A DNA stretch of 64,000 nucleotides from Kiritimatiellia bacterium. GTDB lineage: Bacteria > Verrucomicrobiota > Kiritimatiellia > RFP12 > DVOR01. Location: positions 2,874 through 66,873 of the forward strand of contig JAVBMC010000069.1 in NCBI GenBank assembly GCA_031552845.1, in the 5' to 3' direction. The translations under genes were made by a program, and so were the position numbers. Below are positions 32,414 through 53,088 of the stretch, one piece after another (positions within the stretch are counted from its first letter, which is position 1; each line of letters opens with the position of its first letter). The notes under the pieces are model-generated. The model ran no database searches. It worked only from the letters and a program-made list of their open reading frames with translations, and had not been told where the DNA came from.

Positions 32414-32512
32414 GCCATACCTCGCTTCTTAAAAGCCGCGCGGGAAGTAACCGAAAGGAGTAAGCGAAAACCCCCGCGCGGCACGGTTTACAGTAACGGC
32501 GTCTAGTATAGC

Positions 32513-32976: not shown

Positions 32977-33060
32977 GCGCAAAGCAGCGCAATAACAAGG
33001 GTAATAACAATGGCAGAGAATGTGAGCATGATAAAAGAGTCCTTTTGTGTTTTCAATGGA

Positions 33061-33164
33061 CTGCTCGCCGACCAACGGGCTTGTCATAGTTGATGGCTCC
33101 TTGGAGCTTGGGCTCCGATATGCGTCAAAGCGTCAGGGATCGGTCACCCAATGGGGTCAACGGA
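33061..33164 (-). ncRNA. Candidate structured leader RNA, copy A
   Basis: High identity to 52985-53088; starts 7 nt after a conserved -10 box. Confidence 0.6.
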
Positions 33165-33168
33165 ACGC

Positions 33169-33196
33169 AGTTTAGCAAAATGCAGGAATAAGTCAA
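33169..33196 (-). promoter_or_regulatory. Sigma70-type promoter of leader copy A
   Basis: TTGACT-16-TAAACT; boxes identical to copy B, spacer divergent. Confidence 0.7.
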
Positions 33197-33311
33197 GAGG
33201 GAAAATTAGCGAACAAGAAAACCTTAATAAAACAAGGGGTAAGAGTGGAATAATCTAGAGAAGGCTGACGTTGGGTGCCAATTCCGGCACTATTCCTGTC
33301 AATCCTAAGCT

Positions 33312-35030
33312 TCAGCCTACAGCGCCGGAGAGTTCGCGGGCGCGGATGAGGGCTTCGTCGATGTGGCCAAAGATGTTGTCTTGGCCGAGTTCGTCAAAGA
33401 AGCCGGATTTTTGCATGATGATGAGGGGTTGGCTGTGGACGCCGGAGAGGAGGAGAGTAACGCTGTGTTTGCGGGCGTCTTTGAGCATTTCGCGCAGGGA
33501 GTGGAGTGCCGTGGCGTCGAGCACCCGTACATGGCGCATGCGGAGGATGAGAATGCGTTTTTGGTGGCCGTCGATGGGTACGATGTTGCGGAATTTGTCG
33601 GCGGCGCCGAAGAAGAGCGCGCCTTGGATTTCGAAGACTTCGACATTGGGGGGGACGTCACGGGAGGAGAGGCTGAGGGGGTCGTTTTCGCTGGCGGCGT
33701 CGCTGGCTTCATCGGTGATGAGTTTGGTGACGTTGACTGCCGCACTGACTTCGGACATGCGTTTGATGAAGAGTCCGGCAGCGACGAGCATTCCGGCCTG
33801 AATGGCAACGGTGAGGTCGACGAGGATGGTAAGGAAGAAGGTGAGCAGTAGCACGAGCACATCGCCGGAGGTGCTGCGGAAGAGTCCCACAAAGGTGCGC
33901 CATTCGCTCATGTTGTAGGCGACAACGACCACAATGCCGGCGAGCACGGCGAGCGGAATCATGGCCGCCCATTTGCCGAGGAAGAGCATGATGAGCAGGA
34001 GCAAGGCGGCATGCACTAAGCCGGAGACAGAGGAGGCTGCTGAGGATTTGACGTTCGCGGCGGTGCGGGCGAATGCCCCTGTACAAGGTATGCCGCCAAA
34101 GATGGCGGAGCCGATGTTGGCGACGCCTTGTCCGATGAGTTCGGTGTTGGAGTTGCTGCGCTGGCCGGTCATGCCGTCGGCCACAACCATCGAAAGGAGC
34201 GATTCTAGTCCGGCGAGCACAGCGATGGCAATGGCGGGCGAGATGAGTTCGCGCACGGCTTCCGGGCTGATGCGGGGGAAGACGGGCATGGGGATGGTCA
34301 TACCGCCGGCCACGGCAGGGAAGCGGTCGCCGATGGTTTCAACGGGGATGCCGAAGAGTTGGACAATGGCTGTCAGTGCAACGATGGCAATCAATGAGCC
34401 GGGAATCTTTTGGGTGACGTTTTTCCAATAGATGCAGATGCAGACGGAAATGCCGCTGACGACTGTCGCGGCTAAAACTTTGGGGACGTCTTGCGCCGGC
34501 AGGTGAATGATGTATTGTCCGTAGGCGATGAGTTTGGCGGCAATGTCCGGCGGGACCTTGTCCATTTGAAAACCGAAGAACTCGCGGATTTGCCCAATGG
34601 CGATGATGAGTGCCAGGCCGGCGGTGAGGCCGACGACCACAGGGTACGGAATGAACTTGATGATGGAGCCCATACGGCAAATGCCGAGCACAACAAGAAT
34701 TACCCCGGCCATGATGGTGGCAACCATCAATCCGGCGTAGCCGTATTGCGAAATGATGCCGTAGATGATGACGATGAAGGCACCCGTCGGGCCGCCGATT
34801 TGAACTTTGCTGCCGCTGAGCATGGAGATCAGGAAGCCGCCGATGACTGCCGTTGTGAGGCCCTGCACCGGATTGGCTCCCGAAGCAATACCGAAGGCAA
34901 TCGCCAACGGCAGTGCCACTACCGCGACGACCACGCCTGCAACCAAATCACGGAAGAACATCTTGAACGAATATTCGCGCAAGATTGAAAGCGACGCCGG
35001 ATAAAATGTTTTGGAAAGCTTGCTGTTCAT
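33312..35030 (-). CDS. sulP: SulP-family anion permease with STAS domain
   Basis: GVVVAVVALPLAIAFGIASG, QIGGPTGA and C-terminal STAS (FFGAADKF, LDATALHSL). Confidence 0.95.
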   Translation of the reverse strand: MNSKLSKTFYPASLSILREYSFKMFFRDLVAGVVVAVVALPLAIAFGIASGANPVQGLTTAVIGGFLISMLSGSKVQIGGPTGAFIVIIYGIISQYGYAGLMVATIMAGVILVVLGICRMGSIIKFIPYPVVVGLTAGLALIIAIGQIREFFGFQMDKVPPDIAAKLIAYGQYIIHLPAQDVPKVLAATVVSGISVCICIYWKNVTQKIPGSLIAIVALTAIVQLFGIPVETIGDRFPAVAGGMTIPMPVFPRISPEAVRELISPAIAIAVLAGLESLLSMVVADGMTGQRSNSNTELIGQGVANIGSAIFGGIPCTGAFARTAANVKSSAASSVSGLVHAALLLLIMLFLGKWAAMIPLAVLAGIVVVVAYNMSEWRTFVGLFRSTSGDVLVLLLTFFLTILVDLTVAIQAGMLVAAGLFIKRMSEVSAAVNVTKLITDEASDAASENDPLSLSSRDVPPNVEVFEIQGALFFGAADKFRNIVPIDGHQKRILILRMRHVRVLDATALHSLREMLKDARKHSVTLLLSGVHSQPLIIMQKSGFFDELGQDNIFGHIDEALIRARELSGAVG

Positions 35031-35110
35031 TTATTGATTGGACACTTCTGCCATAATTATACAGCGCGGAGGGCCGGAGCCATCCGCGCTGCGGAGAATC
35101 GTACTCGATG

Positions 35111-36451
35111 CTAGGGAGTTGTGATGACCTTGAGCGGATCGGCCGGGTCGACCTCAAAGTCGCCATTGGGCACCGCCACTCCGGCAGCCTGCAAACGGCG
35201 GCTCCACTTGGCCATCAGATCGCGGCGCACCGTCGCGGGCGAATCATCACCCTCGGCATTCTTCAGCGGCGAGAACTCCTCGGCACGGTCAAACGCCAGA
35301 TTCACAACGGTGTCAGCATCCGGCAGTACATCGAAGATGAACTTTTCGAACTTATACCCGTTCGGCGTGTCGGGCTTGATGAGCTTGCCCGCGGCATCGC
35401 AATACGGAATCTTCTTGTGAGCAATGTGCAAGGGCATATTACCCAGCGCTTCACGCTTCAAAAACTCGCGGTCAAACACATGAATGGCCACGCTGCCGTA
35501 CTTGTAGTACAGCTCGCCATCCGGCGTGCGCTGTTCCATCTGCTCCGGGGTGAGCTCGGAGTATTCCACCATGGCGAACTTACCGCCTCGCTTGACGACG
35601 ATGCCCAAACCTTCCTTGGCGTTGCGCTTGGCGCAGACTTTAACAGAGATGCCTGCCTTACGTTGAGCGTGTAGCCCCATGAAAGCAGGGTCGCAGATTT
35701 CAACCAGCGGATTATCCACCTGGAAAAAGAAAAGGGAGGTGACGTTGCGCTTCTCCATATCCGCCACAGCGCCGGAGGCGGCCAATGCGGAGAGCATGCC
35801 GCCATGTCCGTCAGGATTCATGAAGATGTGTCCAGGTTCGTCCAACATGATCTTACCGTCGGCCGTCAGCGCGGGCCACATGCCTTGCTTGAAGAAGAAA
35901 ACGTCTTCAGGGTTCAGTCCCAGATAGTTCCAACGTGCGAAGTGGGCGCGGGTCGCTTCGTCATTCGTCTCGCTGGTCATGATGTAAAACGGAATGCGTA
36001 CGTTGTACTTCCGCGAGAGCGCGATGATCTGGTGGGCGTGGAAAAAGAAAATGCAGCGCTCGGTGACCGGTGCGATAGGATACATCCCCTTGGGACCATC
36101 GTAACCCAAGCGCGAGCCCTGTCCGCCCGCCACCATCAACACGCCCGCCCTGCCGGCACGCAGGAGGTCTTCACCCGCAGCAACGGCCTGTGCACGCTGG
36201 TCGTCCGACAAAATCTCAACCGGTGCAGGTTCGCCGACTTCGCGCACAGCATCGGCTTTGGGGGCAGAGGCATCTTTCAACATCGCCTGCATGCGGCCGA
36301 TTGCTTTAAAGTCCAGCGTGGCAATCTGCGCCAGCAGCGCCGCCTGCCCTGCAGTATCCAACGTACTCCAGAATTGCAGGACATGGGCTTGTCCGTTGCG
36401 TTCCAATAAATCTTTCGCCGCTTCAAACGTCATATCAGCCTCCAAATTCAA
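35111..36451 (-). CDS. UDPGP/UAP-family nucleotide-sugar pyrophosphorylase (likely UDP-GlcNAc)
   Basis: AGGQGSRLG, PKG, PDGHGG, VEYSE, YKFEKFIFD and EFSPLKN motifs. Confidence 0.9.
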   Translation of the reverse strand: MNLEADMTFEAAKDLLERNGQAHVLQFWSTLDTAGQAALLAQIATLDFKAIGRMQAMLKDASAPKADAVREVGEPAPVEILSDDQRAQAVAAGEDLLRAGRAGVLMVAGGQGSRLGYDGPKGMYPIAPVTERCIFFFHAHQIIALSRKYNVRIPFYIMTSETNDEATRAHFARWNYLGLNPEDVFFFKQGMWPALTADGKIMLDEPGHIFMNPDGHGGMLSALAASGAVADMEKRNVTSLFFFQVDNPLVEICDPAFMGLHAQRKAGISVKVCAKRNAKEGLGIVVKRGGKFAMVEYSELTPEQMEQRTPDGELYYKYGSVAIHVFDREFLKREALGNMPLHIAHKKIPYCDAAGKLIKPDTPNGYKFEKFIFDVLPDADTVVNLAFDRAEEFSPLKNAEGDDSPATVRRDLMAKWSRRLQAAGVAVPNGDFEVDPADPLKVITTP

Positions 36452-36525
36452 AAGAGCATTACTATAGCAAATCCCTAACAGGGAAACAACACCAAATGCA
36501 GTTTCGGGCGGGAAGCCGTCCGGCG

Positions 36526-37533
36526 CTAGTAGCGGCGCAGGAGTTCCAGCATCTGCCGGTCGAGCTTATGTCCGCGAAAATCTTCATACCGCACGTCGGT
36601 ACGCTCGCTGTCCAAGATCCCAAAACCGCCGCGCAGAGTCCATAACGCCCAGCCCCAGTTGGCTTCCTTCCAGACTTTGAGATTATCCTCCATCCAGCGC
36701 AGGACAACGTCGTGCGGCGTCTTGTTAAACGCGCCGAACTCGCCAACCATCACGCTCACATCGTTTTCGACTGCAGGCTGCCAAGGTTTAATCATATGCT
36801 CCCGCAAATCCTCCAGCGCGTTCTTGCCCTCCGGCGGCCAGACAGGTTTTTCGGACGGCGAACCTACCCACGACGCCAAGTAGTGGGAAATACTGAAGGG
36901 ATAGTAGCCGCGCGCGCCTTGGCTGATTTTCAGATCAAAAAGCTGCTTGACGGGATAACGCCCCCATGAGAGGCCATCCGCACAAATTGGACGGTACGGG
37001 CTTTCTTCACGGATGGCCTTGACCAACTCCACGGCCACGCGGCGGTACTGCTCGGGCGTGATCTTATCATCCGGTTCGTTGAACAAGTTAAAGCTCAGAT
37101 CCTCAGGCGAGACGTCTTTATACCGCCGAGCCAACGCCCGCCAATGCAGGCAGGCAACAGTCAGCGCATCGTCGTCAGCAAACAGGTTGCGGGACTCCGG
37201 TGGCTGTGCAACCGTGTAACCGGGAATGCGGTGCAGGCACATTTGAATATGTATCTTATGCTTTTGCCCCAGCTTCAGCACATCATCCAACGGCTTGAGT
37301 TTGTCGGCATCAATTTCATTCCATTTGCCGTCCTTAATCCAGAAACGATAGTCCATCGGCAGGCGTGCAAAGTTGAAGCCCCACTCCTGCATCAATTCAA
37401 AATCCTCCGCACGGAAGCTTGCCGGCTCGCCTTTATATTTAGCTAGGTCCGTCAGATTGAATCCGCGGAACCGCGGCGCAGCTATTGTCGAACAGGCGGC
37501 CAAGACAAGTCCTAACATGATCGCTTTACGCAT
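36526..37533 (-). CDS. Glycoside hydrolase family 5, secreted
   Basis: Signal peptide; WGFNFARLP, catalytic NEP and VGEFG. Confidence 0.9.
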   Translation of the reverse strand: MRKAIMLGLVLAACSTIAAPRFRGFNLTDLAKYKGEPASFRAEDFELMQEWGFNFARLPMDYRFWIKDGKWNEIDADKLKPLDDVLKLGQKHKIHIQMCLHRIPGYTVAQPPESRNLFADDDALTVACLHWRALARRYKDVSPEDLSFNLFNEPDDKITPEQYRRVAVELVKAIREESPYRPICADGLSWGRYPVKQLFDLKISQGARGYYPFSISHYLASWVGSPSEKPVWPPEGKNALEDLREHMIKPWQPAVENDVSVMVGEFGAFNKTPHDVVLRWMEDNLKVWKEANWGWALWTLRGGFGILDSERTDVRYEDFRGHKLDRQMLELLRRY

Positions 37534-37551
37534 ATCCCCTCCTTGCGAATG

Positions 37552-38565
37552 TCACTTGACGCCGTGAGAAAACCGATCCATCCAATACGGAAGCACCATG
37601 TTTTCCGGCATATTACTGTCGAACTGTTTGGCAATCCGCTCTACGCGCTCCAAATTCATCAAAGCCTGAGCTCGGGTCAATCCGGCAGCGCGCAGGCTGT
37701 AGACCTCCGCATACTGCGGATAAAATAAAACACCGTCATCACCGCCGGAAACAGCCACCAGCAAGTCGCGGAACCATTTATTCAACGTCATCAAAAAGTT
37801 AGACCGCTGTTCGCGGTAACGCGCACTGATCTTGGCATCCAGCACATCATCGTCCTCGTCCACGTGCTGGGTTTCCTGCTGCGCTTTGTTCTCGGCCATA
37901 ACCTCTGTCTCGGCGGCATCCTTCATTTCCTTCAGCAACGTCACCAGCTGCAGTGCTGCGGCAGTACGGCCCGCCAAAGAATTTAAAGGAGAATTCGCCA
38001 ATACCTCCAGCACCTGCTCCCGCCACTCATCAGGCAAGTCGCGCACATCCTGCAAATCAATCCGCTGACAGCGGGACAGGATCGTCGGCAAGATTTCTTG
38101 TGGAGTATCCGACAGCAATAAAAACATCGAATCCGGGCTGGGTTCCTCCAGCGTTTTCAACAACGCATTGGCCGCGGCATCTTTCATACGGTCAGCACCG
38201 ACCAGCACAGCGACTTTCCAGCCGCCGATCAACGACGTTTGCTGCATGACCGGCAGGAGTTCTCTGCGGATTTGTTCGACGCTGAAGATACGGGACTTCT
38301 TCTCCGGATGCAGCCAATGCACATCGGCAAATACGCGGCGTTCAATCTGCTCGCACATCTGACACGTACCGCACGGCTTCTCATTACCGGTGCAAAACAA
38401 GTACTGTACAATGCGCAACGCCAGTGCCATTGCTTCGCCGCGGATTGAGCCCGTGATCAAATACGCCTGCGCCGGACGTCCGCTGTCAATTGCGCGGCGT
38501 ACCATGGCGAACTTATCTGCAACCGCGGCAGCGGCTTTCACATCACTGGCCGCATCCGCACACAT
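37552..38565 (-). CDS. holB: DNA polymerase III delta' subunit
   Basis: CGTCQMC Zn site, AANALLKTLEEP and LPTILSRCQ; follows tmk. Confidence 0.92.
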   Translation of the reverse strand: MCADAASDVKAAAAVADKFAMVRRAIDSGRPAQAYLITGSIRGEAMALALRIVQYLFCTGNEKPCGTCQMCEQIERRVFADVHWLHPEKKSRIFSVEQIRRELLPVMQQTSLIGGWKVAVLVGADRMKDAAANALLKTLEEPSPDSMFLLLSDTPQEILPTILSRCQRIDLQDVRDLPDEWREQVLEVLANSPLNSLAGRTAAALQLVTLLKEMKDAAETEVMAENKAQQETQHVDEDDDVLDAKISARYREQRSNFLMTLNKWFRDLLVAVSGGDDGVLFYPQYAEVYSLRAAGLTRAQALMNLERVERIAKQFDSNMPENMVLPYWMDRFSHGVK

Positions 38566-39178
38566 CGTCTGTCACCTTCCTGATATCCGCCGCAACCACA
38601 TCGGTCTCGCGGTCGACATTCACCACGCGGAAACGCTGCGGTTCGCCTGCGGCCAAATCTAAGAATCCCTGACGCAAACGGCAATGGAACGCGAGCTCTT
38701 CCTTTTCAAAACGGTCTTGTCCTGCCCCGCGGTCATTCACCCGGCACAACCCGGCCTCGGGCGGTAAATCCAAGAGCACCGTTAAATCCGGCACGAGCCC
38801 ACCCGTCGCAAAGCGGCTGAGACGGCGCAATTCATCCACAGCCCAACCTCGTCCTGCGCCTTGATACGCCAGCGTCGAATCTTCAAAGCGGTCACACAAC
38901 ACCCAAGCGCCTCGCGCTAAAGCGGGTTCAATCACTGCGGCGACCAATTGCGCCCGGCTGGCGCAGAACAGCAGCACCTCTGCCCGCGGCAGGGGCGCTT
39001 CGCCTGCGGCATCATGCTGCAGCAGATTACGCACAGCTTCGCCTAACAGCGTGCCGCCGGGTTCGCGCGTCATGACAACTTCAATTCCGCGCTCTTGCAA
39101 ATGCGCGGCCAGCAAACGGATGTGTGTACTTTTACCGGCACCTTCACCGCCTTCAAATGTGATGAAGCGTCCTCTCAT
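38543..39178 (-). CDS. tmk: Thymidylate kinase
   Basis: FITFEGGEGAGKST, TREPGG and LCDRF motifs. Confidence 0.97.
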   Translation of the reverse strand: MRGRFITFEGGEGAGKSTHIRLLAAHLQERGIEVVMTREPGGTLLGEAVRNLLQHDAAGEAPLPRAEVLLFCASRAQLVAAVIEPALARGAWVLCDRFEDSTLAYQGAGRGWAVDELRRLSRFATGGLVPDLTVLLDLPPEAGLCRVNDRGAGQDRFEKEELAFHCRLRQGFLDLAAGEPQRFRVVNVDRETDVVAADIRKVTDDVCGCGQ

Positions 39179-41034
39179 GGTTCTGTCCTTGGCTGAATAA
39201 ACGTCCGGTCGATCGCGGCCAGCGTCTCGTCCGACAAAACATACACTAGTTCACGCCCGCGCAGCATGGCATAACGTCCGCCGCCACGCGCCTTTGCGCC
39301 AATCAGCAACACCCGGCGCAGTGCGTCGTCACCGGTTAAATCAAACCGCACCTCCAGCATCGGCGAGGAGAGTCCATACAATGTCAACGCTTGCGGCGGC
39401 GGATTCAACTGCTCGACATATTGCGCCCGCAAATCCACGAACTGCCCCAGCCACTCTTTGAACGCCGGCACGTCCAATACGCCGGATTCCGTCTGCCAAA
39501 CACCATTGGGCGACGGCAGTGTACAACTCACTGAGTTAGTGACGCCATTAGGCTCGTAACGCGTCACAGCAACCGCCTTGACCGCCGCAGACGGAACAGA
39601 AAGAACGGTCCGATCAGCAAAGCGTCGAACATCCAAATTACCCCGCAGCTCGGGCGGCAGATTTGTCGCGGCCACCACGCACACATTACTTGCGGCCCCC
39701 GGCAGGCGAAGGCAATAGTCACGCGCACTGTCCTCCAGTGCAAAAACTTCCAGTTCAAACGGCGTCTGCTTGCCGGTCAAAGTAACCTTAGCGATCGGCT
39801 GTCCCAACGGCAACACAACCGCAGGCAGGTTCAGCTCCGGACGCAGCCGGACAATGGAGGTGAGCCACGTGTTGATATACTCGCTGTCGGCACGGCGGCC
39901 ATCGACTCCCGCCAGCATCCAGCCGCCTCCGGCATTGCGCACCACATCCACAGTTTGGTCGCCCACCACCAAATGCAGCTGTTGGATTTCATCGGGGTCG
40001 CCGTTATAGAACCGCGCTCCGGCGAAGACTTCCTGCAAGCTAGACTCTAATGCTGTCCAATACGCATTAGTCACCGTCACCAGCACATCGTCGTTCTCAA
40101 ACAAAGCATACACCTGTCCCGGCTGAGAAGCGGACAGCCGTCCCAAACGCAAACGCAACGGCTGTTCGCGTCCACGCTCACTCACCCAAATCCGTATAGC
40201 GTGTTCATCATCCAAGCCGTATTGGTTCAAGCGTGGCGTGGAGGCCAGCAACACCTCGGCGGCAGTGTTTGTCGTCTGAGCGGAAATCTCCGGCATGGCG
40301 GACTGCGCAAAGCTATCGGCACGGAACTCATACAAACGGGCCAGCAACGCTTGCACCGTCCGCGGATCGGCGACGCGTCCCACCGGTTGCCGCAAGATCC
40401 ACGTGCCGGACTCCAATGCCAACTGCACGCTACCCGATTCCGGCCTGCGGATTTCTACCGCCGTTGCGCGCTCCGCCGCAGCACCTAAGAAAGTACGAGA
40501 GCGTGCATCAACAGCGGTCTTCGGCAAGGCATCCCAAAAAGCCCGCGGCATCAGCTCGATACGTGAAGTGCCGGCACGTCCGACGTAGATTTCCGTTTCA
40601 TCCGCCGTCAGGCGGCCCAATAGAACCGACTCGCTGGTACCATCGGCATACTCAAGCGTGATGGATGCGGCCGGCGGTTCCAAGCCGAAGGTCTCGCGTG
40701 AAACGCGCCGCTGTTCAGCCTCTTGCGGCATAATCACATCGGTCGCCCGCGTATGCTCCAGCTCCGACAAAAGACGTTCGATGATCGCTCCATCGGCTTC
40801 ACAAGCAACGGGCTTCAACAAGCGCCAGCGTCCTCCGCTATTGGCCGCAGCAACCGTCTCGGCTCCCCGTTGCCACGTCAAAGAGACAACTTCATCAAAG
40901 CGCGGCGAGAACATGCCGCCTCCATCATGCTCAACGCTCGGCAAACCGGATTCCCGACGGTAAACCACCAACAGCAGAATCGAGAACAAACCAATCCAGA
41001 ACAACCATCGGATGAGTGATTTAACGGGGTTCAT
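39175..41034 (-). CDS. DUF4340-domain protein, repeated domains
   Basis: N-terminal TM, repeated ..FGLEPP/YGL motifs; follows the GldG-like gene; ATG 41034 overlaps the upstream stop. Confidence 0.75.
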   Translation of the reverse strand: MNPVKSLIRWLFWIGLFSILLLVVYRRESGLPSVEHDGGGMFSPRFDEVVSLTWQRGAETVAAANSGGRWRLLKPVACEADGAIIERLLSELEHTRATDVIMPQEAEQRRVSRETFGLEPPAASITLEYADGTSESVLLGRLTADETEIYVGRAGTSRIELMPRAFWDALPKTAVDARSRTFLGAAAERATAVEIRRPESGSVQLALESGTWILRQPVGRVADPRTVQALLARLYEFRADSFAQSAMPEISAQTTNTAAEVLLASTPRLNQYGLDDEHAIRIWVSERGREQPLRLRLGRLSASQPGQVYALFENDDVLVTVTNAYWTALESSLQEVFAGARFYNGDPDEIQQLHLVVGDQTVDVVRNAGGGWMLAGVDGRRADSEYINTWLTSIVRLRPELNLPAVVLPLGQPIAKVTLTGKQTPFELEVFALEDSARDYCLRLPGAASNVCVVAATNLPPELRGNLDVRRFADRTVLSVPSAAVKAVAVTRYEPNGVTNSVSCTLPSPNGVWQTESGVLDVPAFKEWLGQFVDLRAQYVEQLNPPPQALTLYGLSSPMLEVRFDLTGDDALRRVLLIGAKARGGGRYAMLRGRELVYVLSDETLAAIDRTFIQPRTEP

Positions 41035-42485: not shown

Positions 42486-42496
42486 TTCAAAACCTC

Positions 42497-43249: not shown

Positions 43250-43965
43250 GCTGCCCCCTTTCCGGCGCCGGACGACAGCTCAATCAATTTAGCCGTCAGC
43301 TCCGCCGGTTGAAAGTCGCGGACATTCAGCATTGCGGCCAAACGTCCCTCGTGCAACACGGCAAACCGCGTGCAAAAAGTCTTCATCATTTCCAACGCAT
43401 GACCGCTCAACACGATCGCCGCATTCGTCGACAGGTCAGTCAAGGCGCTCCCGATGCGCTTTTGCGTCACAGGGTCAACTCCGGCTAGAGGATCGTCTAA
43501 GAAAACCGCTTGAGGCGACAGCAATAACGCATCTGCAATGGCCACACGCTTCCGGCAGCCCAGCGACAGCTCGCGCATCGGCCTATCCGCAAAAGCATCC
43601 AAATCCAATCGATCAGACGCCTCCCTCAAACGGCGGCGCAAACGCAGCCAACGCTCCCGCTTCAAACGCGCCCGGTAGCGCAGATAGTCGGTTGGCGTCA
43701 TGTCTCCATAAACAGGACACGACTCCGGCAGAAAGGCGATATGCTTGCGGTATTCCAATGAGTTGCGGTAACAATCCAACCCATCCAATACCACCTTGCC
43801 CTTCGACGGCACCAACACCCCCGCCAGCAGCTTCAATAGAGTACTCTTACCCGCACCATTCGCGCCGACCACTCCGACAATCTCGCCAGGCGAAACGTCA
43901 AACGAAACATCCCGCACCGCCGGCCGGCGTCCATAAGCAAAGTAGAGTCCCTCTGCCGTCAGCAT
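43246..43965 (-). CDS. ABC transporter ATP-binding protein, GldA-like
   Basis: GANGAGKS Walker A, LSLGCRKR signature, FLDDP Walker B. Confidence 0.9.
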   Translation of the reverse strand: MLTAEGLYFAYGRRPAVRDVSFDVSPGEIVGVVGANGAGKSTLLKLLAGVLVPSKGKVVLDGLDCYRNSLEYRKHIAFLPESCPVYGDMTPTDYLRYRARLKRERWLRLRRRLREASDRLDLDAFADRPMRELSLGCRKRVAIADALLLSPQAVFLDDPLAGVDPVTQKRIGSALTDLSTNAAIVLSGHALEMMKTFCTRFAVLHEGRLAAMLNVRDFQPAELTAKLIELSSGAGKGAA

Positions 43966-45143
43966 AGGTCAATAATCTCCCGCGGCAATTCCGTCAAACA
44001 CTCCGTCCCCGACTCGGTGATCAAAAACGTATCTTCCGTGCCCACGGCACCGACTCCCGGCAACACAAACTTCGGCTCCACCGCGATACACATACCCGCC
44101 TCGAGCACATCCTTCGAACGCGCCCCCAGCACCGGCAGCTCGTTAATCACCAGCCCCGTGCCATGCCCGACAAACTTGGCCTTCTGCGCCAAGCCCATGA
44201 AACAATCTGCGCCGCCCGCATCAGCCGCCATCTGCAAGGCCAAATCATACAGCTCTTCGCACCGCACGCCGGGCCGCATTCGCTTCGCGACCTCCTGCTC
44301 AATCGCCACAGCCGCATCATGCAGGCGATACGCCTCACCCGATAGCCGCCCGCACGAATAAATCCGGCTCATGTCGGTCAAATAGCCCGCCGTATTCCAC
44401 GACAAGTCCGCCATTACCGACATCCCAGATGCAATCACCGTGCCATTCTCGCCGACAGGAATCGAACGATCCTCACCCGCGCCACCCAACGCAAAATCAT
44501 ACGGCGAAGGCTCCCCGGCATTATCCCCGGCCAGCACCAAGCCCACAAAAATCTCCATGCTCTGCCCGAACACGCGGAACATCCCCAAAGACCCCGCCTT
44601 ACGCAACGTATGCTCTGCCTCAATAGAAAAGTCGCGATCCGTCATCCCCGGCTTATACAGCCCCGGAAACTCCGCATAAGCCGCTGCATGCCGCCGTCCG
44701 GCCTCCCGCATGATCTCAATCTCACCCGGCGTACGCACCGCCCGCAGCCGCCGCAGCGTCAGCGAACCATTCACGCAGACAGCCGACGAAAACGCCGCGG
44801 CAATCCGCATGCAATCGCTATACGCCAGCTCATCCTGTTCCAGCGCCAGCCGCTTCGGCAAAGTCACGCCCTGCGCCGCCAACAGCTCCGGAATCTGCTC
44901 CACCTTACGGATCGACAGCACATGCCCGCCCGACAACCCGCACGGACGCTTCACAAAAAACCACGGTTCTCCCACGGCAGGCACATACACATACCCTAGA
45001 AAAATCCGCCCCGACAGATACAAAATATTCACCGTCGAGACAATCAACATCCCCTCGGCCTCCAGCCGCGGCAACTCCGCCTGCACTCTTTTCCAGCGCA
45101 GCGCCAAATCCAACTTCACATTATCAGAAACATCACTCAGCAT
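43959..45143 (-). CDS. Xaa-Pro aminopeptidase, M24 family
   Basis: Creatinase-like N-domain, DMSR, GHGTGL, VEP and TEDT metal ligands. Confidence 0.9.
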   Translation of the reverse strand: MLSDVSDNVKLDLALRWKRVQAELPRLEAEGMLIVSTVNILYLSGRIFLGYVYVPAVGEPWFFVKRPCGLSGGHVLSIRKVEQIPELLAAQGVTLPKRLALEQDELAYSDCMRIAAAFSSAVCVNGSLTLRRLRAVRTPGEIEIMREAGRRHAAAYAEFPGLYKPGMTDRDFSIEAEHTLRKAGSLGMFRVFGQSMEIFVGLVLAGDNAGEPSPYDFALGGAGEDRSIPVGENGTVIASGMSVMADLSWNTAGYLTDMSRIYSCGRLSGEAYRLHDAAVAIEQEVAKRMRPGVRCEELYDLALQMAADAGGADCFMGLAQKAKFVGHGTGLVINELPVLGARSKDVLEAGMCIAVEPKFVLPGVGAVGTEDTFLITESGTECLTELPREIIDLC

Positions 45144-45298
45144 CGCAGGCCTCACAAAAATGAAGCCCAAAGTATAACACAGCCCAGACTAAAAACAAAG
45201 GAAAAACCCCCACCCGTTTCCCCTTCCATCCACACGATTTGACGTGCTCTGCAACAATCAATGCAAGCAAACTAGAGCCACGCATGCCTGAAGGCATT

Positions 45299-46423
45299 TT
45301 AAGCTTTGCGTACGACGTTTTTAATGTATTGCGTATGAATGTGCCCGTCGGCGTGAAGGATATGATAGCCGACGTTGAGTAGGAGTCCCAACGCAAGGAA
45401 GTCGGTTAGGATGCTTGATCCGCCCGAACTGATGAAGGGCAGCGCGAGGCCTTTCGGAGGAAAGAGTCCGGATACCACCGCCATGTTGAATGCCCCTTGA
45501 AAGACGAGCAGCAGCGTCGCCCCCAATGCCAGATAGCGTCCCAAGCGGTCGGGCGCATTGAGCGAGATGGTGATGCCGCAGGCAAGTATCACCGCGAAGA
45601 GGACAACCATCCCGAGCGTGGCGGGCAAGCCGAGCTCTTCACCGACAATTGCAAAGATATAGTCGGTATGGGCCTCCGGCAGATATTGGTGCTTTTGCAT
45701 GCTCTGGCCGAGTCCCACGCCCCAAAGTCCACCCGCTTTGAAGGCCAAGCGCGCCTGCCGAGGCTGATGAGCTTTTTCGGATGTTGCGCTGCTGCCATCC
45801 AAGTGCGCACGGATGCGCTCCATGCGGTTTTCATTGTTCACCACCAAAACGGCTACACCGATACATGCCGCTACAGCCAACGCGATTAAATACGGTAACG
45901 GCACCCGCCCGACCAGCAGGATGCTGCCGCCGAGAACCAACAAAACCAGCGCACATCCAAAGTCCGGCTGCGCCAGCACCGGCAAGACAAACGCCGCAGG
46001 CGCCAGACAGGCCAGCACCGCACCTTTCCAAAACTTGTTAATCGACGGCCCTAACCGCACCACCCATACGCTGGTGACAATCACTGTCACTAATTTGGCC
46101 AGTTCGCTTGGCTGAAAGCTCACCCCTGCAACCACCAGCCAGCGATAACTGCCTTTCATAAACCTACCGATCCCCGGCACCCACACCATCATCAACAAAA
46201 TCAACATCGCGACAAACATCGGAATGATGACATACTTCTTCTTATACCAATGGTAGTCGAACTTATAGAGGACAGCCGCCCCGATAATGCCGATGCCGAA
46301 GAACCCGAGCTGCGAAGTCCAAATACTCGCCCCGCGCGGACTGGCGGCTGACGTTAGAATCAAAATGCCCAACCCGCACAGCAATATTACGGAAAGAATC
46401 AAACACGTTACAACTTTTCTCAC
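45299..46423 (-). CDS. ftsW: SEDS protein FtsW/RodA
   Basis: FQPSELAK, QPDFG, LPEAHTDYIFAIVGEELG and LPFISSGGSS motifs. Confidence 0.88.
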   Translation of the reverse strand: MRKVVTCLILSVILLCGLGILILTSAASPRGASIWTSQLGFFGIGIIGAAVLYKFDYHWYKKKYVIIPMFVAMLILLMMVWVPGIGRFMKGSYRWLVVAGVSFQPSELAKLVTVIVTSVWVVRLGPSINKFWKGAVLACLAPAAFVLPVLAQPDFGCALVLLVLGGSILLVGRVPLPYLIALAVAACIGVAVLVVNNENRMERIRAHLDGSSATSEKAHQPRQARLAFKAGGLWGVGLGQSMQKHQYLPEAHTDYIFAIVGEELGLPATLGMVVLFAVILACGITISLNAPDRLGRYLALGATLLLVFQGAFNMAVVSGLFPPKGLALPFISSGGSSILTDFLALGLLLNVGYHILHADGHIHTQYIKNVVRKA

Positions 46424-46453
46424 GCCAACCTCCTTTCTGGATAATCACCATCA

Positions 46454-47371
46454 CTAACGCACGTCTGCGGCAGGTTCGTTCGTGCTCACCGGCACTAGCA
46501 GCTTGACCTCCGAAGTCAGGGGAATCGGCTTCGCGACACGTTCATCCACGTTGATCGGCACCAGCAGCTTCGGCAAATTCTTCAACGCCTGCTGCACGGC
46601 CGTTTTGTGCTCGGCAGCCGCCTGCGGCGTAAACGAACACTCATGCCCGACCGGACCGCCCTCGACTTCATACAGTACATTGTTCTCGATCTTCCGCGCC
46701 AGTTCGATCTTGAACTCCGGACACGTAAACACACACGCCGCACCGCTAAACTCCACAACCAGCCCATTTTGATTGAAGGGCTTCTCGCACGAATTCAACT
46801 CACTCCGCAACGAACGCTCAAACCGTGAACTCAACGCGCTCAATCCGTTGGTTGCATACGGCTGCAACCCCGTTTCAACTTCCACCGTAAAAGTATCATA
46901 CCGTTGCCGCTCCCGACGTACGCGGGTATACAGGCCGTTTTGGAAGGTATAGACCGAAAAAATCTTCTCTGCCCAACCGCACTTATAAACGTCGACAATC
47001 TGATACCACCCGCCCGACTTCTCCGCCAGCATCGGGAAGCCAAAAAACTCTCCGACATCCTCCCACTTCTGGGAGGGCCGTATCCGCTGAATCCGCCACG
47101 CATTACCGCCAGAACCACCGGTGCTATCGCAAACCACTGTTTCGGCGATACCGTCGTCGTTGAAGTCAAACTTCATCGACCGTGAACCATCCACCCGCTG
47201 TTGGTTCGCAGGCAGAATCTTCGGCAGCTGGTAGCCATCCTCCGGCAGCATGCGATATGTCGGGATTTCATCCGGCGCCTTTGCGATAGGGCACCCAACT
47301 TTCGCCGTCTCGGCTGCGCCGGCCCACAACACTGCCAGCGCAAGCCCGCCTAAAAAGTGACCCCGTTTCAT
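46454..47371 (-). CDS. Secreted hypothetical protein
   Basis: Signal peptide; DFNDDG Ca-binding-like motif. Confidence 0.7.
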   Translation of the reverse strand: MKRGHFLGGLALAVLWAGAAETAKVGCPIAKAPDEIPTYRMLPEDGYQLPKILPANQQRVDGSRSMKFDFNDDGIAETVVCDSTGGSGGNAWRIQRIRPSQKWEDVGEFFGFPMLAEKSGGWYQIVDVYKCGWAEKIFSVYTFQNGLYTRVRRERQRYDTFTVEVETGLQPYATNGLSALSSRFERSLRSELNSCEKPFNQNGLVVEFSGAACVFTCPEFKIELARKIENNVLYEVEGGPVGHECSFTPQAAAEHKTAVQQALKNLPKLLVPINVDERVAKPIPLTSEVKLLVPVSTNEPAADVR

Positions 47372-47372
47372 C

Positions 47373-48587
47373 TCACAGCACCTTCTTGAGGCGCTTCATC
47401 GCCTCACGGACATTCTCACGTGAATTGAACGCGCTGATGCGGATGAATCCCTCGCCGCACTTGCCGAATCCTGCGCCTGGTGTCGTCACGATCTGCGCCT
47501 CGTTCAACAGCTTGTCGAAGAACTTCCACGAATCCTGCTTCACGTTCACCCAGATATACGGACTGTTCTCGCCGCCCGTGCAAGTGTAACCAAACTTCGT
47601 CAGCGTCTCGCGGATGATCTTGGCATTGGCCAGATAATAATCCACCTGCGCCTTCGTCTGCTTCTTGCCTTCCTTTGAATAAACCGCCTCGGCTGCACGC
47701 TGCACCGGATACGACACGCCATTGAACTTCGTCGTATGACGGCGGTTCCACAATGCATGCAATGACACCGGCTTACCCTGCGCGGTATAAGCAATCACAT
47801 CCTTCGGCACCACCGAGAACGCACAGCGCGTCCCCGTGAAACCGGCTGTCTTCGAAAAGCTGCGGAACTCAATCGCCACCTCACGCGCGCCGGGAATCTC
47901 ATAGATCGACTTCGGCAACGACGGGTCGCGCACGAATGCCTCATACGCCGCATCAAACAAAATCAGCGCCTTGTTCGCCTTCGCATACTTCACCCAAGCC
48001 GCCAGCTCCTTACGCGTCGCGGTCGCGCCCGTCGGGTTGTTCGGGAAGCACAGGTAAATTAAATCCACCTTCTCCTTCGGCGGCGCCGGCACGAACTTGT
48101 TCTTCGGCGTAGACTCCAAATACACGAGCCCGTCATACCGCCCCGTCTTCGACGCGCCCGTGCGCCCGGCCATCACGTTGGTATCGACATACACCGGATA
48201 CACCGGATCCGGCACCGCAATCACCAGCTTCTGCGCAAACAGCTCTTGGATATTCGCCGTGTCGCACTTCGCGCCGTCCGATACGAAAATCTCATCCGCC
48301 GCGACATCCACATTCGCATAGTCATTCTTCGCAATCGCCTCACGCAGGAAGTCATACCCCTGCTCAGGCCCATACCCGCGAAAAGCCCCCTCCGTCGCCA
48401 TCTCATCCACCGCCTTGTGCAGCGCCTTGATACAAGCCGGCGCGAGCGGCATCGTCACATCGCCAATACCCAAGCGGATGACCTTCTTATCCGGATTAGC
48501 CGCGGTATAAGCCTTGATGCGCTTAGCGATCTCAGCAAACAAATAAGACGATTGTAATTTAGCGTAATGCTCGTTGACGCGAATCAT
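47373..48587 (-). CDS. dapL: LL-diaminopimelate aminotransferase
   Basis: LGIGDVT, GYGPEQG, SDGAKCD, PNNPTG and [13 protein letters not shown]; start MIRVNE at 48587. Confidence 0.95.
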
Positions 48588-49500
48588 GCCTCTTCTCCTT
48601 TGGTGGTGATAAAATCCAACGCTTGTTAAACCAAAACCATTGCCCCGGGTCATTACGGATCGCCTTATCAAACCCGCTCATGACCTCCTGCGCAATCCGC
48701 TTCACCTCATCCTCCTCAGGTGCCTGCAAATCCGGATGCGCAACCCCCAACACCTCAAAATGAAACTTCGTCCAGCCCACCCGATGCGGCGCCGCATACA
48801 CCACCGGTACATTCGACGTATACGCAAACCGCCCGATCCCCTCGCCGATGTTCGCCTTACCCCCCAAGAAATCCACCGACACCCCATGATGCTTCATGCT
48901 GATATCCGCCAGAATCGCCACCGCCCCGCCCGTGCGCAGGAACTCCGTCACCCGCCGCAGCGAACTCGGCGTATTGCGCTCCACAATCTGCGTCCCATGC
49001 GTGCGCGTACGATTAATCCAAGCATTCAACAGCGGATTACGCTGCCGCGCCGAGATCGCAATCATCTTAATATCATACGTCCGACACGCAATCGCCGCCA
49101 AATCCCAGTTGCCGAAATGCGGCACCGTAATCACCGCCCCGCCGAACTTCTCAATCAACCCAATCACTCGCGGAATCTGCGGCCCAAAATCCGGCATATT
49201 CCGATCCACCCACGCCCGGTCAAAACGGTTCGCGCGCATCATCTCAATCATGTTAAACGCCATGTTCCGCAACGACAGCCATGCAATCCGATTCACCTCC
49301 GCCTCCGGCACCTCCGCCCCGAACACTTCACGCACCCGCTCCGCCACCAGCCGCCGCTTCTTCCCGAAGCCCAGCCAGAAAACCCCCTTCATCACCACCC
49401 ACGCAAAAGCAAACGCCAGCCGCAGCGGCAGTAGCCCCAACAACGTTTGCACCGTCCGTACAAACCCATATTCAACCATGTCACGGACAGAATACTTCAT
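48559..49500 (-). CDS. Lipid A biosynthesis acyltransferase, LpxL/HtrB family
   Basis: HFGNWD motif and [11 protein letters not shown]. Confidence 0.88.
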
Positions 49501-49583
49501 GCGCCCCAAATCTAAAAAAGCCCCCAAACACCAAACAGGCCCGCGCCAAACGACGCAGGCCTGCCTACACAAGCCGCACCGGA

Positions 49584-50063
49584 TTACTTCGTCTCGTCGT
49601 GCAACAGCGCCATGATCTTATTAATCATCTGCACCTGGTCATTATGCGACCGGATCAACGTATTACACACGCTGATCGCCTCCGCCGTACGCCGCAACGT
49701 CTGCGCATGCGAGACCTCCTGCTGCGTGCGCGAATCGCGCAGACTCTTCAACGTCGCTCCAAGCTCCGCCACCTGCTGCTCAGACTTCTGCAACAGCTGC
49801 CGCGTGTGGAACAACTGCGACAACACCTCGCCCGGCTCCAAATCCAAATCCGACACCCGCATTCCCTCCGGAATCGGCGCCAAGATCTGATTCCCGCACT
49901 CCGAGCACGGCACTTGCAAGCCCGCCCCGCGATAATCAATCACCAGATTATGGCCGCACACCGGACAATCAAACACGATATCCGTCGAACGGATCTCTTC
50001 AATGCCCTCCTGCTCCGGGGTCGTATCATCCAAATCCTGAACCTCTTCAATACCTTCGCTCAT
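49584..50063 (-). CDS. Zn-ribbon plus coiled-coil hypothetical protein
   Basis: CPVC...CSEC followed by heptad repeats. Confidence 0.75.
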   Translation of the reverse strand: MSEGIEEVQDLDDTTPEQEGIEEIRSTDIVFDCPVCGHNLVIDYRGAGLQVPCSECGNQILAPIPEGMRVSDLDLEPGEVLSQLFHTRQLLQKSEQQVAELGATLKSLRDSRTQQEVSHAQTLRRTAEAISVCNTLIRSHNDQVQMINKIMALLHDETK

Positions 50064-50099
50064 AGCTAAACTCCTTCAGAAAACCACCCCGTTACAACG

Positions 50100-50135
50100 A
50101 AAAAAGGCGATGCCCGTCACCGGGCGCCGCCTTTT
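50100..50135 (-). terminator. Probable terminator after rpmB
   Basis: GGCG/GCCCG-containing hairpin flanked by A and T tracts. Confidence 0.55.
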
Positions 50136-50165
50136 CCAAAAACACCTGCGTAAGCCTACCTCTGC

Positions 50166-50393
50166 CTACGCTTTCGTCACGGCGCCCGACTTCAAACAAG
50201 ACGCGCACACCGTCATTCGACGGCTGTTCGGCCCATCCTTCACCCGCACGGAACGCAAATTCGGCATAAAACGACGCTTCGAAATCCCGGTGGTATGCAA
50301 GCCGATACCGCCCTTATACTTCTCGAGACCATGACGGACAATCTTACATCCTGTCATCGGACCCTTACTACAAACTTCACACACTCTCGACAT
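50166..50393 (-). CDS. rpmB: 50S ribosomal protein L28
   Basis: MSRVCEVC...KRRFMPNL...VCASCLKSG. Confidence 0.95.
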   Translation of the reverse strand: MSRVCEVCSKGPMTGCKIVRHGLEKYKGGIGLHTTGISKRRFMPNLRSVRVKDGPNSRRMTVCASCLKSGAVTKA

Positions 50394-50630
50394 AGTTATA
50401 ACTCCTGAAAGGACACCATCTTATCATGAACCCCACCCCATATCAAGCCCAAAGCATATCCCCGCCCGAGTTTTTACATCCATGTAAAGTGTAAAATATC
50501 TTTTCCCTGCAGATGGGGGGTGCCCGGGCACGCTCTCTTTCAGGGAAGCCCCCCATGGGGGGCGCGAAAATCTAACCGCCGGTTGAGACGTTTAGTGTTC
50601 CATCGGCGGGTCGATTTTCGTATCATTTTG

Positions 50631-51760
50631 ATGACTAAACCAAACACCCGAAAGGAACCGCCGATGGAACGCCGCCAGCATACAAAACCCCGCCGTAAGA
50701 ATCAACCCTTAACTCAGCTTGACCGCCAGCGTCTTGAACAATGGCACGCAGAAGCCCGCAAGCAAGCTCCCGGACGCCGGGTGCAGGTTGCTGCGTTCTG
50801 CAAAGAAATGGCCGTGCGCTTGTGCTGTTGCACACGCACGATTCGCAATGAACTCAAACGGGGGTACTACGCTCATCAGCTTTCGGACTTAACAACAGTT
50901 CCGGCCTATTCGTGGCACTGCGCGCAGACCTGGATCAATGCGAACAAGCTCAAACGAGGACGTAACCCGCTTGAAAAGCAGGATAAGCAGTTCAAAATCT
51001 TCCGGGGTATCGTGATCGACCTATTGCAAAGCAGGGAGGCGCACCAGCGTTACTTCATTTATGCCGCCACCCAAATAGCCAATCAGTGCACCGGCCTTCA
51101 TATCAGTGCTAAAACCGTCTATAACATGTTGATGCAAGGCCGCTTAGGCAACCTGACCCCCGAGAAAGTCCTCTTCTTCCGCAAGCCCAAACGCAAGGCT
51201 CCGCGCAAAGCCACCACCCCCCATAAAGCCAAACTCGGCCACAGTATTGACCAACGCCCGCAGCACATCGATCTGCGCGAAGAGTTCGGGCATTTTGAAG
51301 GCGATACCATCTGCAGCCGCCGGGGCGATAAAACCGTCATCTTCTCCTTCATCGAACGCTCCACCCGCATGCAGTTCTGCTACAAAATGTCCCGCAATAC
51401 CATCAAATGCGCCCGCAAAGCCCTGCGCCTGCTGCTCAAAGACTGCCCCTACATCAAAACAATCACTTTCGACAACGGCAGCGAGTTCTCCATGTCAAAG
51501 GGATGCTCAAACTCCTGCGCCGTCATACCCCAGGTGCCATGAGCTATTACGCCCACCCCTACAGCTCCTGGGAACGCGGCAGTAACGAAAACAACAACCG
51601 CCTCATCCGCCGCTTTGCTCCCAAAGGCAGCCGGCTAAGCCAGATCAGCCACCGCGAACTCGCCGAAGGCATTAGCTTCATCAACCAGCTTCCTCGCAAG
51701 ATCTTTGACGGGCAAAGCGCTCTTGAGCTCTGGCACGCCGCTTTGCAAAAAGTCGCCTGA
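50631..51760 (+). mobile_element. IS30-family transposase split by a -1 frameshift near 51490-51503
   Basis: HTH (IRNELKRG), FGHFEGDT and TITFDNGSEF in frame 0; HPYSSWERGSNENNNRLIRRFAPKG in the -1 frame. Terminal IRs not resolved. Confidence 0.88.
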
Positions 51761-52080
51761 AAGTGAAATCATTTATTGCAATGAACCTTAGGTATCAAAA
51801 CACCTCGCGTCTTGCGATGCGTGCAAGATTCACCTGTAGAGAGGGCATGGGTGCTACCACTTATGGAGCATCGATGGGAGCTCTCGTGGGGTATGAGTGG
51901 CAGCATCCATAGGGCATGTGTGGTAGCAGGTATGGGGTATGAGTGATAGCATCGTGGAGCTGTTGAGGGGACGTCTTCTGGGGTGTTGGTGGGACGTCGA
52001 ACGTTGCTGCTCAGGGAACAAAAAGGGACGCTGGGGGTGAACCTGCGCCCTTTGAGGGATGTGTTATTCCCGCTCTGCTG

Positions 52081-52812
52081 TCAGTCAACCGCGCTGAGTG
52101 TCTCGGTCAAGCTGCCGATAGCGAGGTGCTTGCTGCCGTTGATGCGGTTGCGCACTTCGACTCGATAGCGTTGCCCCACCTGCAGCTCTGTCGGAATGAG
52201 GAAGCTCAGGCGGGCGGGGTTATTATCTAGAAAGTCCGTCACACGCAGGGTTTCATCATCGGGAGTCTCCGGAATGAGCCAAACGCCTTCGTCCTCGGCG
52301 GAGAGATCGACGCGCAGGTATTTGCCATGTAACGCCGCCATCTTGCCGCGCGTAAGCTGCGTATTGATGGTGCCACTGCGGGCGTCCTCGAAGCGTGTGG
52401 GCTTCGGAGTTTTTGCCTTGAAGTCCACCAGCTCGGCCGAGAGGTTGTCCGTGCTGATGGTGAGATTAAGCAGTGCCTTTTTAAAGGTCATCTTCATACG
52501 GTAACGGCGTCCTTTAGGGGCGATGTCGTTGCCGTCTTTATCCATCACGCCATTGGCAAACAGATGGATGCTGCCCAGCCCCGGAATCTCCACGGCCATA
52601 CCGTGCATGACTTCATCGATAATGACGTCGCCAAGGTTGTTCAGCACCGCCAGCACATCGGCCTTCGACACGGTAGTGCCGGAGACGGCAATGCGTTTGG
52701 CGAGCTTGTCGACAGGGAGCTTCTGGCCCATTTTCGTGGCGTAGATGTATTCGCCGCGTGCCTTCTGATCGGCGCATAATGCAGGCCGCTTGATGAGTGT
52801 GATCTTTGACAT
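52081..52812 (-). CDS. HU-like DNA-binding protein with DUF4469-like Ig domain
   Basis: SKADVLAVL...GMAVEIPGLG HU-like fold; C-terminal GKYLRVD...NNPARLSFLIP. Confidence 0.8.
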   Translation of the reverse strand: MSKITLIKRPALCADQKARGEYIYATKMGQKLPVDKLAKRIAVSGTTVSKADVLAVLNNLGDVIIDEVMHGMAVEIPGLGSIHLFANGVMDKDGNDIAPKGRRYRMKMTFKKALLNLTISTDNLSAELVDFKAKTPKPTRFEDARSGTINTQLTRGKMAALHGKYLRVDLSAEDEGVWLIPETPDDETLRVTDFLDNNPARLSFLIPTELQVGQRYRVEVRNRINGSKHLAIGSLTETLSAVD

Positions 52813-52949
52813 GATGTCATTTCCTAACTGCCGCCTTGCGTATGATATTGGCAGCCGGCGGCGTCTGTCAACCCGACGCTACGGCGATTCCGAATAAACA
52901 ATGCAACGCACTCGCGTCACTAGTGGATCTCCGCCTCCTGCTTTCCCCA

Positions 52950-52977
52950 TTGACTTTATCATCCAATCTGCTAAACT
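52950..52977 (+). promoter_or_regulatory. Sigma70-type promoter of leader copy B
   Basis: TTGACT-16-TAAACT with TG just upstream of the -10. Confidence 0.7.
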
Positions 52978-52984
52978 GCGCCCT

Positions 52985-53088
52985 GTTGACCCCATTGGGT
53001 TACCGATCTCTGACGCTTAGACGCATATCGGAGCCCAAGCTCGGAAGGAGCCATCAACATATAGACTGCCCGTTTGGTCGGCGTGCAG
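52985..53088 (+). ncRNA. Candidate structured leader RNA, copy B
   Basis: High identity to the reverse complement of 33061-33164; GTTGA...TCAAC closing stem with internal hairpins. Confidence 0.6.

Follow-up and report, generated by a model that had tools for sequence, protein, structure and literature searches.

A 64-kb window of DNA from a Kiritimatiellia bacterium (the whole stretch analyzed here, 64,000 nucleotides of contig JAVBMC010000069.1) carried two copies of a repeated element, in which a predicted promoter was followed directly by a structured leader RNA. Our preferred explanation, which we hold with about even confidence, is a dispersed cassette specific to this lineage. It would consist of a promoter fused to a cis-acting, structured 5' leader of ~105 nt and would be present in ~25–35 copy-equivalents.

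Copy A lies on the minus strand (33057–33200) and copy B on the plus strand (52947–53092), so that the copies are inverted and 20 kb apart. The initial annotation had claimed this arrangement. It was confirmed by reading both stretches and by searching the window with one copy in blastn, which aligned A with B over 144 nt (85.4% identity; E = 3.6e-38). The likeness of the two copies is far beyond chance. No third copy was found in the 64-kb window, where the next blastn match was no better than E = 0.3, and covariance model (CM) R1, run on the window with filters off, returned copies A and B only. In the alignment, the similarity began ~6 nt 5' of the -35 hexamer and stopped at 33057 in A and at 53092 in B. 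The first 74 nt of the predicted transcript were 96% identical between the copies, with three substitutions and one indel. All four differences in the core fell at unpaired positions.

Further copies were found in metagenomes. Run X1 (SRR23967709) is an invertebrate gut metagenome, and 92–99% of the sampled words of the window were present in it. X1 contigs on the two loci had a depth of 250–400 over the core versus 10–12 on the flanks. The depth dropped to ~65–190 over the promoter and to ~90 over the 3' hairpin P4 because these parts are more diverged. More than 30 different X1 contigs matched at 80–99% identity, and those long enough to list had depths of 8.7–13.2, which is the genome's own coverage. 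The family thus comprises ~25–35 copy-equivalents, which most plausibly lie in the same genome. Family copies were also present in run X3 and in the wastewater metagenome X5, and the family was found only in these three runs. Assemblies broke at the element. Contig joints in X1 fell near copy A, from 33197 back to 32925, from 32976 back to 32874, and from 32916 skipping to 33089. These joints imply other loci with tandem 273-nt units (promoter, leader, and the next ~135 nt) and with shuffled modules.

The promoter is predicted to be of the sigma-70 type, with the -35 hexamer TTGACT, the extended -10 element TGCTAAACT, and a GC-rich discriminator. The promoter scan found TTGACT and TAAACT 16 nt apart, with the TG of an extended -10, in both copies, which bore out the earlier claim that the hexamers are kept at this distance while the spacer has diverged. 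In copy A (minus strand), the -35 lies at 33191–33196 and the extended -10 TGCTAAACT at 33169–33177, separated by the 16-nt spacer; the -35 was invariant in the metagenome copies aligned to copy A, and the loose-end consensus of other copies at this locus likewise had TTGACT in that place. In copy B (plus strand), the scan placed the -35 at 52950–52955 and the extended -10 TGCTAAACT at 52969–52977. The -35 of copy B was also seen in the loose ends of X1 and X3 contigs. In their consensus, which represents other copies, TTGACT stood exactly at 52950–52955, and the spacers and upstream sequence were unrelated. No hexamer variants were reported in other metagenome copies, whose spacers varied by substitutions and indels. 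The predicted +1, with which the conserved RNA begins, is a purine 7–8 nt past the -10 (G 33161 in A and G 52985 in B). The motif TGCTAWACT occurred three times in the window versus 0.36 expected. One of the three, at 32505–32513, is a promoter-like site distinct from the two copies.

The minimum free energy (MFE) structure of the core was a three-way junction in both copies, followed by hairpin P4 and then by a start codon. The stems are P1 (GUUGA/UCAAC), P2a (UUGGGU/GCCCAA), P2b (CCGAU/AUCGG) with a small apical stem, and P3 (GCUC/GAGC). In copy A, the 73-nt core RNA (33089–33161, minus strand) had an MFE of -23.2 kcal/mol and scored 103.4 bits with CM R1. In its numbering, P1 occupies positions 1–5/69–73, P2a 11–16/49–54, P2b 19–23/43–47, and P3 55–58/63–66. 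Its z score was -2.75, with one of 200 shuffles folding as well, and that of the antisense strand was -1.65. The 74-nt core of copy B (52985–53058, plus strand) formed the same three-way junction, with an MFE of -23.6 kcal/mol, 107.2 bits with CM R1, a z score of -2.47, and an antisense z score of -0.65. Hairpin P4 follows at 33059–33085 in copy A (minus strand; GAC..GC.CGUU-loop-GGCG.GC..GUC, read from the sequence and the fold) and at 53064–53090 in copy B (plus strand, from the fold), and it was kept in the X3 and X5 copies with one loop change. The P4 helix is common to A and B, and the internal loops differ. Two unpaired segments were invariant, CCCCA in the P1/P2 junction and AAGGAG in P3.

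An earlier sketch of the fold stood in part. The GUUGA/UCAAC stem and CCGAU/AUCGG were recovered in the MFE structure. The mini-hairpins CCC-AUU-GGG and AGC-CCAA-GCU were not; in their place the MFE structure has P2a UUGGGU/GCCCAA. Its third arm is P3 GCUC/GAGC. The terminator scan found no intrinsic terminator after the conserved part in either copy. Conserved terminator/antiterminator or anti-Shine–Dalgarno (anti-SD) alternative pairings were also not found. Weak hairpin-plus-U sites lie 3' of both copies, at differing distances. A P1/P1' switch, in which GUUGACC would pair with GGUCGGC, was rejected, as its 3' partner was broken in other copies. A split SD formed through the AAGGAG of P3 was dropped because the spacing from AAGGAG to the start codon after P4 is too long.

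The variation among the metagenome copies was compared with this fold. Eight of the nine one-sided stem changes kept the pair (A5>G, U16>C, A22>G, G49>A, C51>U, C52>U, C58>U, and C70>U), and one broke it (G47>A). A22>G was present in five contigs and the change of its partner, U44>C, in three. Several of the kept pairs are G-U pairs, which are workable on the sense RNA strand only, a sign of selection on the RNA. One diverged copy has the sequence GACUCGUCAC...GCGCAUACGAA (contiguous in one loose end: GACUCGUCACUAACGCUUUGCGCAUACGAA). In that copy, P2b was CUCGU/ACGA instead of CCGAU/AUCGG; three of its pairs differed on both sides, and the folded shape was the same. The apical stem differed between subfamilies yet was pairable in each form (CG/CG, CGC/GCG, and GCGC/GCGC). 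In another metagenome copy, the P4 pairing CGUU/GGCG had become CGUU/AACG, and two G-U pairs had become A-U pairs. The initial annotation had proposed covariation as a check, and compensatory or G-U-compatible changes were indeed seen in metagenome copies, in data that are fragmentary. All of these fragmentary data appear to indicate selection on RNA structure, on the promoter's strand.

The sequence AUGCUC follows P4 in both window copies and in a further metagenome copy that has other flanks; therefore, the conserved unit seemingly extends to the start codon. The start codon lies 3–30 nt past P4. In copy A, the putative translation-start region (33027–33056, minus strand), read from the sequence, has an in-frame UUG at 33054–33056 after P4, then AAGGAC, and AUGCUC at 33024–33029. 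In copy B, the corresponding reading (53094–53114, plus strand) gave in-frame AUGs at 53094 and 53112, with GAAGG before the second. Both are in frame with a phosphotransferase system (PTS) EIIA-2 gene, which is PtsN-like, encodes 156 aa, and lies at 53226–53696 (plus strand; Pfam PF00359, E = 9.7e-21). PtsN homologues are 150–159 aa long (n = 99); therefore, ATG 53226 is the more likely start of this gene. The frame is open from AUG 53094/53112 into EIIA, so a 38–44-aa N-terminal extension is possible; such an extension was absent in all 99 homologues. ATG 53112, which the initial annotation had placed in frame with PTS IIA, is in that frame, but as the gene start it is disfavored by the homologue lengths. 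A GGGGG-N12-CCCCC hairpin with GUCUUUAAAA directly after it was read from the sequence at 53140–53171 (plus strand), past leader B and before the probable start of PtsN. This weak, terminator-like site was not called by the terminator scan because its loop is longer than 8 nt. The earlier claim of a 5' leader shared by unrelated genes agreed with these readings. A promoter-like module and a structured RNA precede unrelated contexts, which are a doubtful small open reading frame (ORF) at a prophage edge for copy A and PTS IIA-Ntr for copy B.

If the element is a cassette of promoter and leader, it would act in cis by supplying transcription. The P1 helix, which begins at +1, may shield the mRNA from degradation of the kind that requires a free 5' end. 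Hairpin P4, directly next to the start codon, may gate translation initiation. A protein, a ligand, or the ribosome could make contact at CCCCA and AAGGAG. Duplication or recombination, and not classical transposition, would have spread the cassette. It would place many unrelated genes, including the PtsN-like gene and the prophage-edge locus, under one common 5' control module.

Several points weigh against this explanation. The copies other than A and B are known through variant tables and 30-nt loose ends of Logan contigs, and full-length sequences number two. The linkage of some paired changes was assumed, and the compensatory changes were read from these tables and loose ends. The folds of the whole leaders, as distinct from the cores, were unexceptional (z = -1.0 and -1.3). 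Downstream genes are known for two copies, so that "diverse genes" means these two cases and the differences among loose ends. In the two metatranscriptomes from the same study, scattered genes of the organism had a depth of 2–6, and nothing was seen on the element. The proposed mechanism of mRNA stabilization and translation gating is inference only.

The RNA data also bear on whether the copies are sibling genes for trans-acting small RNAs (sRNAs), each with its own promoter and with incidental downstream genes. The element does have its own promoter, encodes a compact structured RNA of ~105 nt, and is multi-copy, as such genes would be. However, no intrinsic terminator stands at the end of the conserved part, a start codon comes directly after P4, and both copies in the window face the next gene. 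No RNA contig was found on the ~25 copies though these libraries did yield tRNA-sized RNA. Coverage was low, and this silence argues only weakly against an abundant stable sRNA from ~25 promoters. The lack of an intrinsic terminator together with AUGCUC after P4 in three copies indicates a leader rather than a free-standing RNA gene. We consider a family of sRNA genes improbable.

The initial annotation had proposed that the leader is a riboswitch aptamer of no known class. A scan of the whole window with Rfam 15 at gathering thresholds returned only a tRNA (tRNA-Thr). At E ≤ 10, a search of 601 nt around each copy returned only two chance fragments of long non-coding RNAs, with 9.8 and 11.6 bits. 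Neither copy thus matched an Rfam family, and that annotation had likewise matched the leader to no riboswitch class. DNA pattern scans, exact and degenerate, gave no match in IMG/VR, in the GTDB species genomes, or in JGI metagenomes, and a looser pattern gave three chance matches only. Blastn against INPHARED and PLSDB found no match to the element, and a protein search with an antisense pseudo-ORF found nothing. The element was absent upstream of the nearest PtsN homologues (54–59% identity). More distant PtsN homologues (~47% identical) belong to named Kiritimatiellae metagenome-assembled genomes, which makes a placement by these homologues tentative, and no PtsN relatives were found in GTDB genomes.

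A true riboswitch, or a leader that binds a protein, would have a three-way junction binding one effector and would define a regulon of ~25 operons, whose recent expansion would account for the likeness of the copies. The structure was kept with compensatory changes, and the junction nucleotides were invariant. The RNA is positioned exactly at the predicted 5' end of the transcript and before start codons, and weak hairpin-plus-U sites follow both copies. The peripheral stem P2c and the P3 loop vary in length, as is typical of aptamers. Like the three-way-junction riboswitches (purine and TPP), the core has ~74 nt, a junction closed by P1, a place in the 5' untranslated region (UTR), and peripheral stems that vary and still pair. 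Unlike them, it matches no Rfam model, has a narrow range, shows very high identity between copies, and includes a promoter in the repeat.

These differences speak against a riboswitch, and so do others. The element occurs in one lineage only and is missing upstream of the PtsN homologues. No conserved terminator/antiterminator or anti-SD was found, the GUUGACC/GGUCGGC pairing is broken in other copies, and the two known downstream contexts are unrelated. The copies are 85–95% identical, and this identity includes the promoter, the junctions, and the loops, which indicates a recently amplified repeat rather than independently maintained aptamers. The step from shared leader to riboswitch aptamer was therefore not upheld: the copies are too alike, they were found in a single lineage only, the nearest PtsN homologues lack them, and no canonical expression platform was found. 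We regard a true riboswitch or protein-binding leader as a minority possibility. To the same limited degree, the junction may be the sensor of an undescribed riboswitch or RNA–protein class, copied together with its promoter before ~25–35 transcription units of a gut bacterium of the PVC group (possibly Kiritimatiellota). If this were true, a whole regulon would have been built by the spreading of a mobile "promoter plus sensor" cassette.

The family could instead be a selfish or neutral dispersed repeat, resembling a miniature inverted-repeat transposable element (MITE) or a putative mobile promoter (PMP), whose hairpins serve DNA mobilization or nothing. Many near-identical copies are present in one genome, assemblies break there, and by the contig joints other loci have tandem 273-nt units and shuffled modules. 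However, terminal inverted repeats were not found; the ends, TTGACT... and ...GCAGU(Y), have no inverted-repeat relation. No target-site duplication was visible flanking copy A or B, and there were no empty sites for comparison. The initial annotation had named a MITE as an outcome that would refute its reading, and at neither copy was a terminal inverted repeat seen. Divergence was concentrated in the spacer and the loops, whereas the hexamers and stems were kept. The G-U-compatible changes and the asymmetry between sense and antisense folding indicate selection at the RNA level. A repeat without RNA function is thus rather unlikely in our judgment. An IS200/IS605-type PATE was rejected as well, as P2 is unlike P4 and the G-U pattern is specific to RNA.

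Putative mobile promoters were reportedly described by Matus-Garcia, Nijveen, and van Passel in 2012. By definition, PMPs share a stretch of 50 nt or more with an identity of 80% or higher, and the genes that follow have non-homologous coding sequences (PMC3575422). PMPs have no link to known insertion sequences and may carry RNA regulatory motifs (PMC3575422). Judged from its sequences, the family fits this operational definition, a point in favor of the selfish repeat. As in PMPs, non-coding sequence of more than 80% similarity lies before non-homologous genes in one genome. Unlike PMPs, most families of which are pairs, this family has ~25–35 copies and a leader RNA that begins at the predicted +1 and has signs of structural selection.

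Other known systems share some features with the element. Neisseria Correia elements and ERIC are promoter-bearing MITEs that are transcribed into mRNA leaders and affect the fate of the mRNA. They are likewise dispersed repeats of ~100–150 nt that supply promoters and fold within 5' UTRs. The element differs from them in that neither terminal inverted repeats nor a target duplication, of TA or another kind, were seen, and its shape is not one long palindrome. The stem-loop of the ompA 5' UTR and the STAB-SD of Bacillus thuringiensis cryIIIA are mRNA stabilizers at the 5' terminus and are features of single genes. Similar to these, the element has a helix at or beside +1 and, at a long distance before the start codon, an SD-like AAGGAG within its leader. 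A difference is that the element is a dispersed family. The put RNAs of phage HK022 are cis-acting processive antiterminators of ~70 nt, in two similar copies just 3' of promoters. The element resembles them as a structured RNA of ~70 nt past a promoter, in two opposed copies, with copy A leading into a phage late block of ~30 kb. However, put RNAs have two stem-loops, whereas the element has a three-way junction plus a hairpin and many chromosomal copies.

Copy A lies 115 nt past a sulfate-permease (SulP) gene (33312–35030) and points into ~650 nt without a convincing gene. A prophage late block comes next, with lysis-like small ORFs (31056–32413), a terS-like gene (30415–31089), terL (28802–30430), and a portal gene (27331–28839). 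These genes belong to a prophage-like block at ~600–32700, mostly on the minus strand, which also contains genes for a Mu F-like head protein (15007–16158) and a DnaB-type helicase (4780–6177). The block continues past the left edge of the window, where the Logan contig stops after another ~155 nt. Related phages in IMG/VR have 35–52% TerL identity to the block. In these TerL-related phages (L008–L024), nhmmer and CM searches did not find the element.

The ORF that follows leader A (32763–33056, minus strand) would encode 88 or 97 aa with a hydrophobic N-terminus. It was evaluated through its database relatives, and it is rich in short DNA repeats and doubtful. The earlier claim that ATG 33029 opens a hydrophobic ORF was correct as to the frame, and its coding is doubtful. 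Its homologues are P0100 and P0101 (E ~1e-9) and P0102. They are 82–100 aa long and have the N-terminus MLTLFAIAITLAIALLFTSMRPLRSMRSR in common, and P0100 and P0101 are encoded on one 72-kb contig at NCBI. No relatives were found in IMG/VR. In two paralogous copies of the ORF, 12 of 16 substitutions were non-synonymous, and the region is composed of short direct repeats. P0102 has the same short motifs in another order, which suggests translated repeat DNA.

Short direct-repeat arrays lie 3' of copy A on the minus strand, at 32645–32700 and 32885–32976. They contain CUUGAUGAG-like units 4–5 times, GUCGAUGAGAYCG twice at 18-nt spacing, and UGUUAUURCSCU twice in tandem. From their sequence, the arrays could be protein-binding sites, either pac/cos or operator; they also give rise to the apparent "hydrophobic ORF". 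A hammerhead ribozyme was rejected at this place, as the CUGAUGAG motifs 3' of copy A have no canonical core. The whole-window Rfam scan at gathering score gave no hammerhead family; 32645–32700 lay outside the E-value search. Further along the same strand (32505–32620), the promoter-like TTTTGCTATACT has the extended -10 of the element and no -35. Three AGGGTAC repeats, ~30–56 nt apart, precede it. By its sequence, this site, which lies before the first lysis-like gene, resembles a phage late promoter that depends on an activator.

The element could also be related to the prophage, either as a duplicated att site or as the 5' UTR of a type-I-toxin-like hydrophobic peptide gene, with copy B as a decayed relic. 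Copy A does adjoin the prophage late region, the start of the hydrophobic ORF is kept in 3–5 "A-type" copies and in P0100–P0102, and one contig joint suggests tandem units. Against this, A and B are in opposite orientation with core genes in the 20 kb between them, the family has ~25–35 copies, and related phages do not have the element. Most substitutions in the ORF change the amino acid, and its sequence consists of short DNA repeats. The scan of copy A showed no antisense promoter, and copy B has no hydrophobic ORF. An attL/attR duplication was rejected because of the inverted orientation, the position of the phage outside the pair, and the excess of copies. A type I toxin–antitoxin system did not agree with the data either, as only A-type copies have the start of the ORF, non-synonymous changes make up 12 of its 16 substitutions, and no antisense promoter was found. 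A prophage-related origin is highly improbable.

The 20 kb between the copies are ordinary chromosome, with GH5, holB-like, tmk, ABC transporter, FtsW/RodA-family, aminotransferase, and rpmB genes. On the plus strand, a transposase-like gene lies at 50520–51760 in two overlapping ORFs, 50520–51542 (a weak rve match) and 51407–51760. By eye, the second ORF resembles the C-terminus of the IS30 family, and the gene may be frameshifted or a pseudogene. A separate high-copy repeat lies at 52840–52932, with a depth of ~430 in X1 (10–12 nearby) and ~52 in X3 (2–7 nearby). It overlaps the minus-strand near-consensus promoter TTGACA-18-TATCAT of an HU-like/DUF4469 gene (52081–52812) and also a terminator-like hairpin (52903–52920). 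Downstream of the EIIA gene are tRNA-Thr(TGT) and then three GH97 paralogues of 731, 665, and 667 aa (53896–60387 for this stretch, plus strand).

The unit is compact (~150 nt) and self-contained. Even if it were merely a selfish repeat, it would still be a clear promoter-bearing repeat without the hallmarks of a transposon. To our knowledge, almost no non-coding RNAs have been described in this phylum-level lineage. If the cassette works as proposed, it would add a new structured RNA family, and the bacterium would rewire many unrelated genes by copying a unit of promoter and post-transcriptional control.

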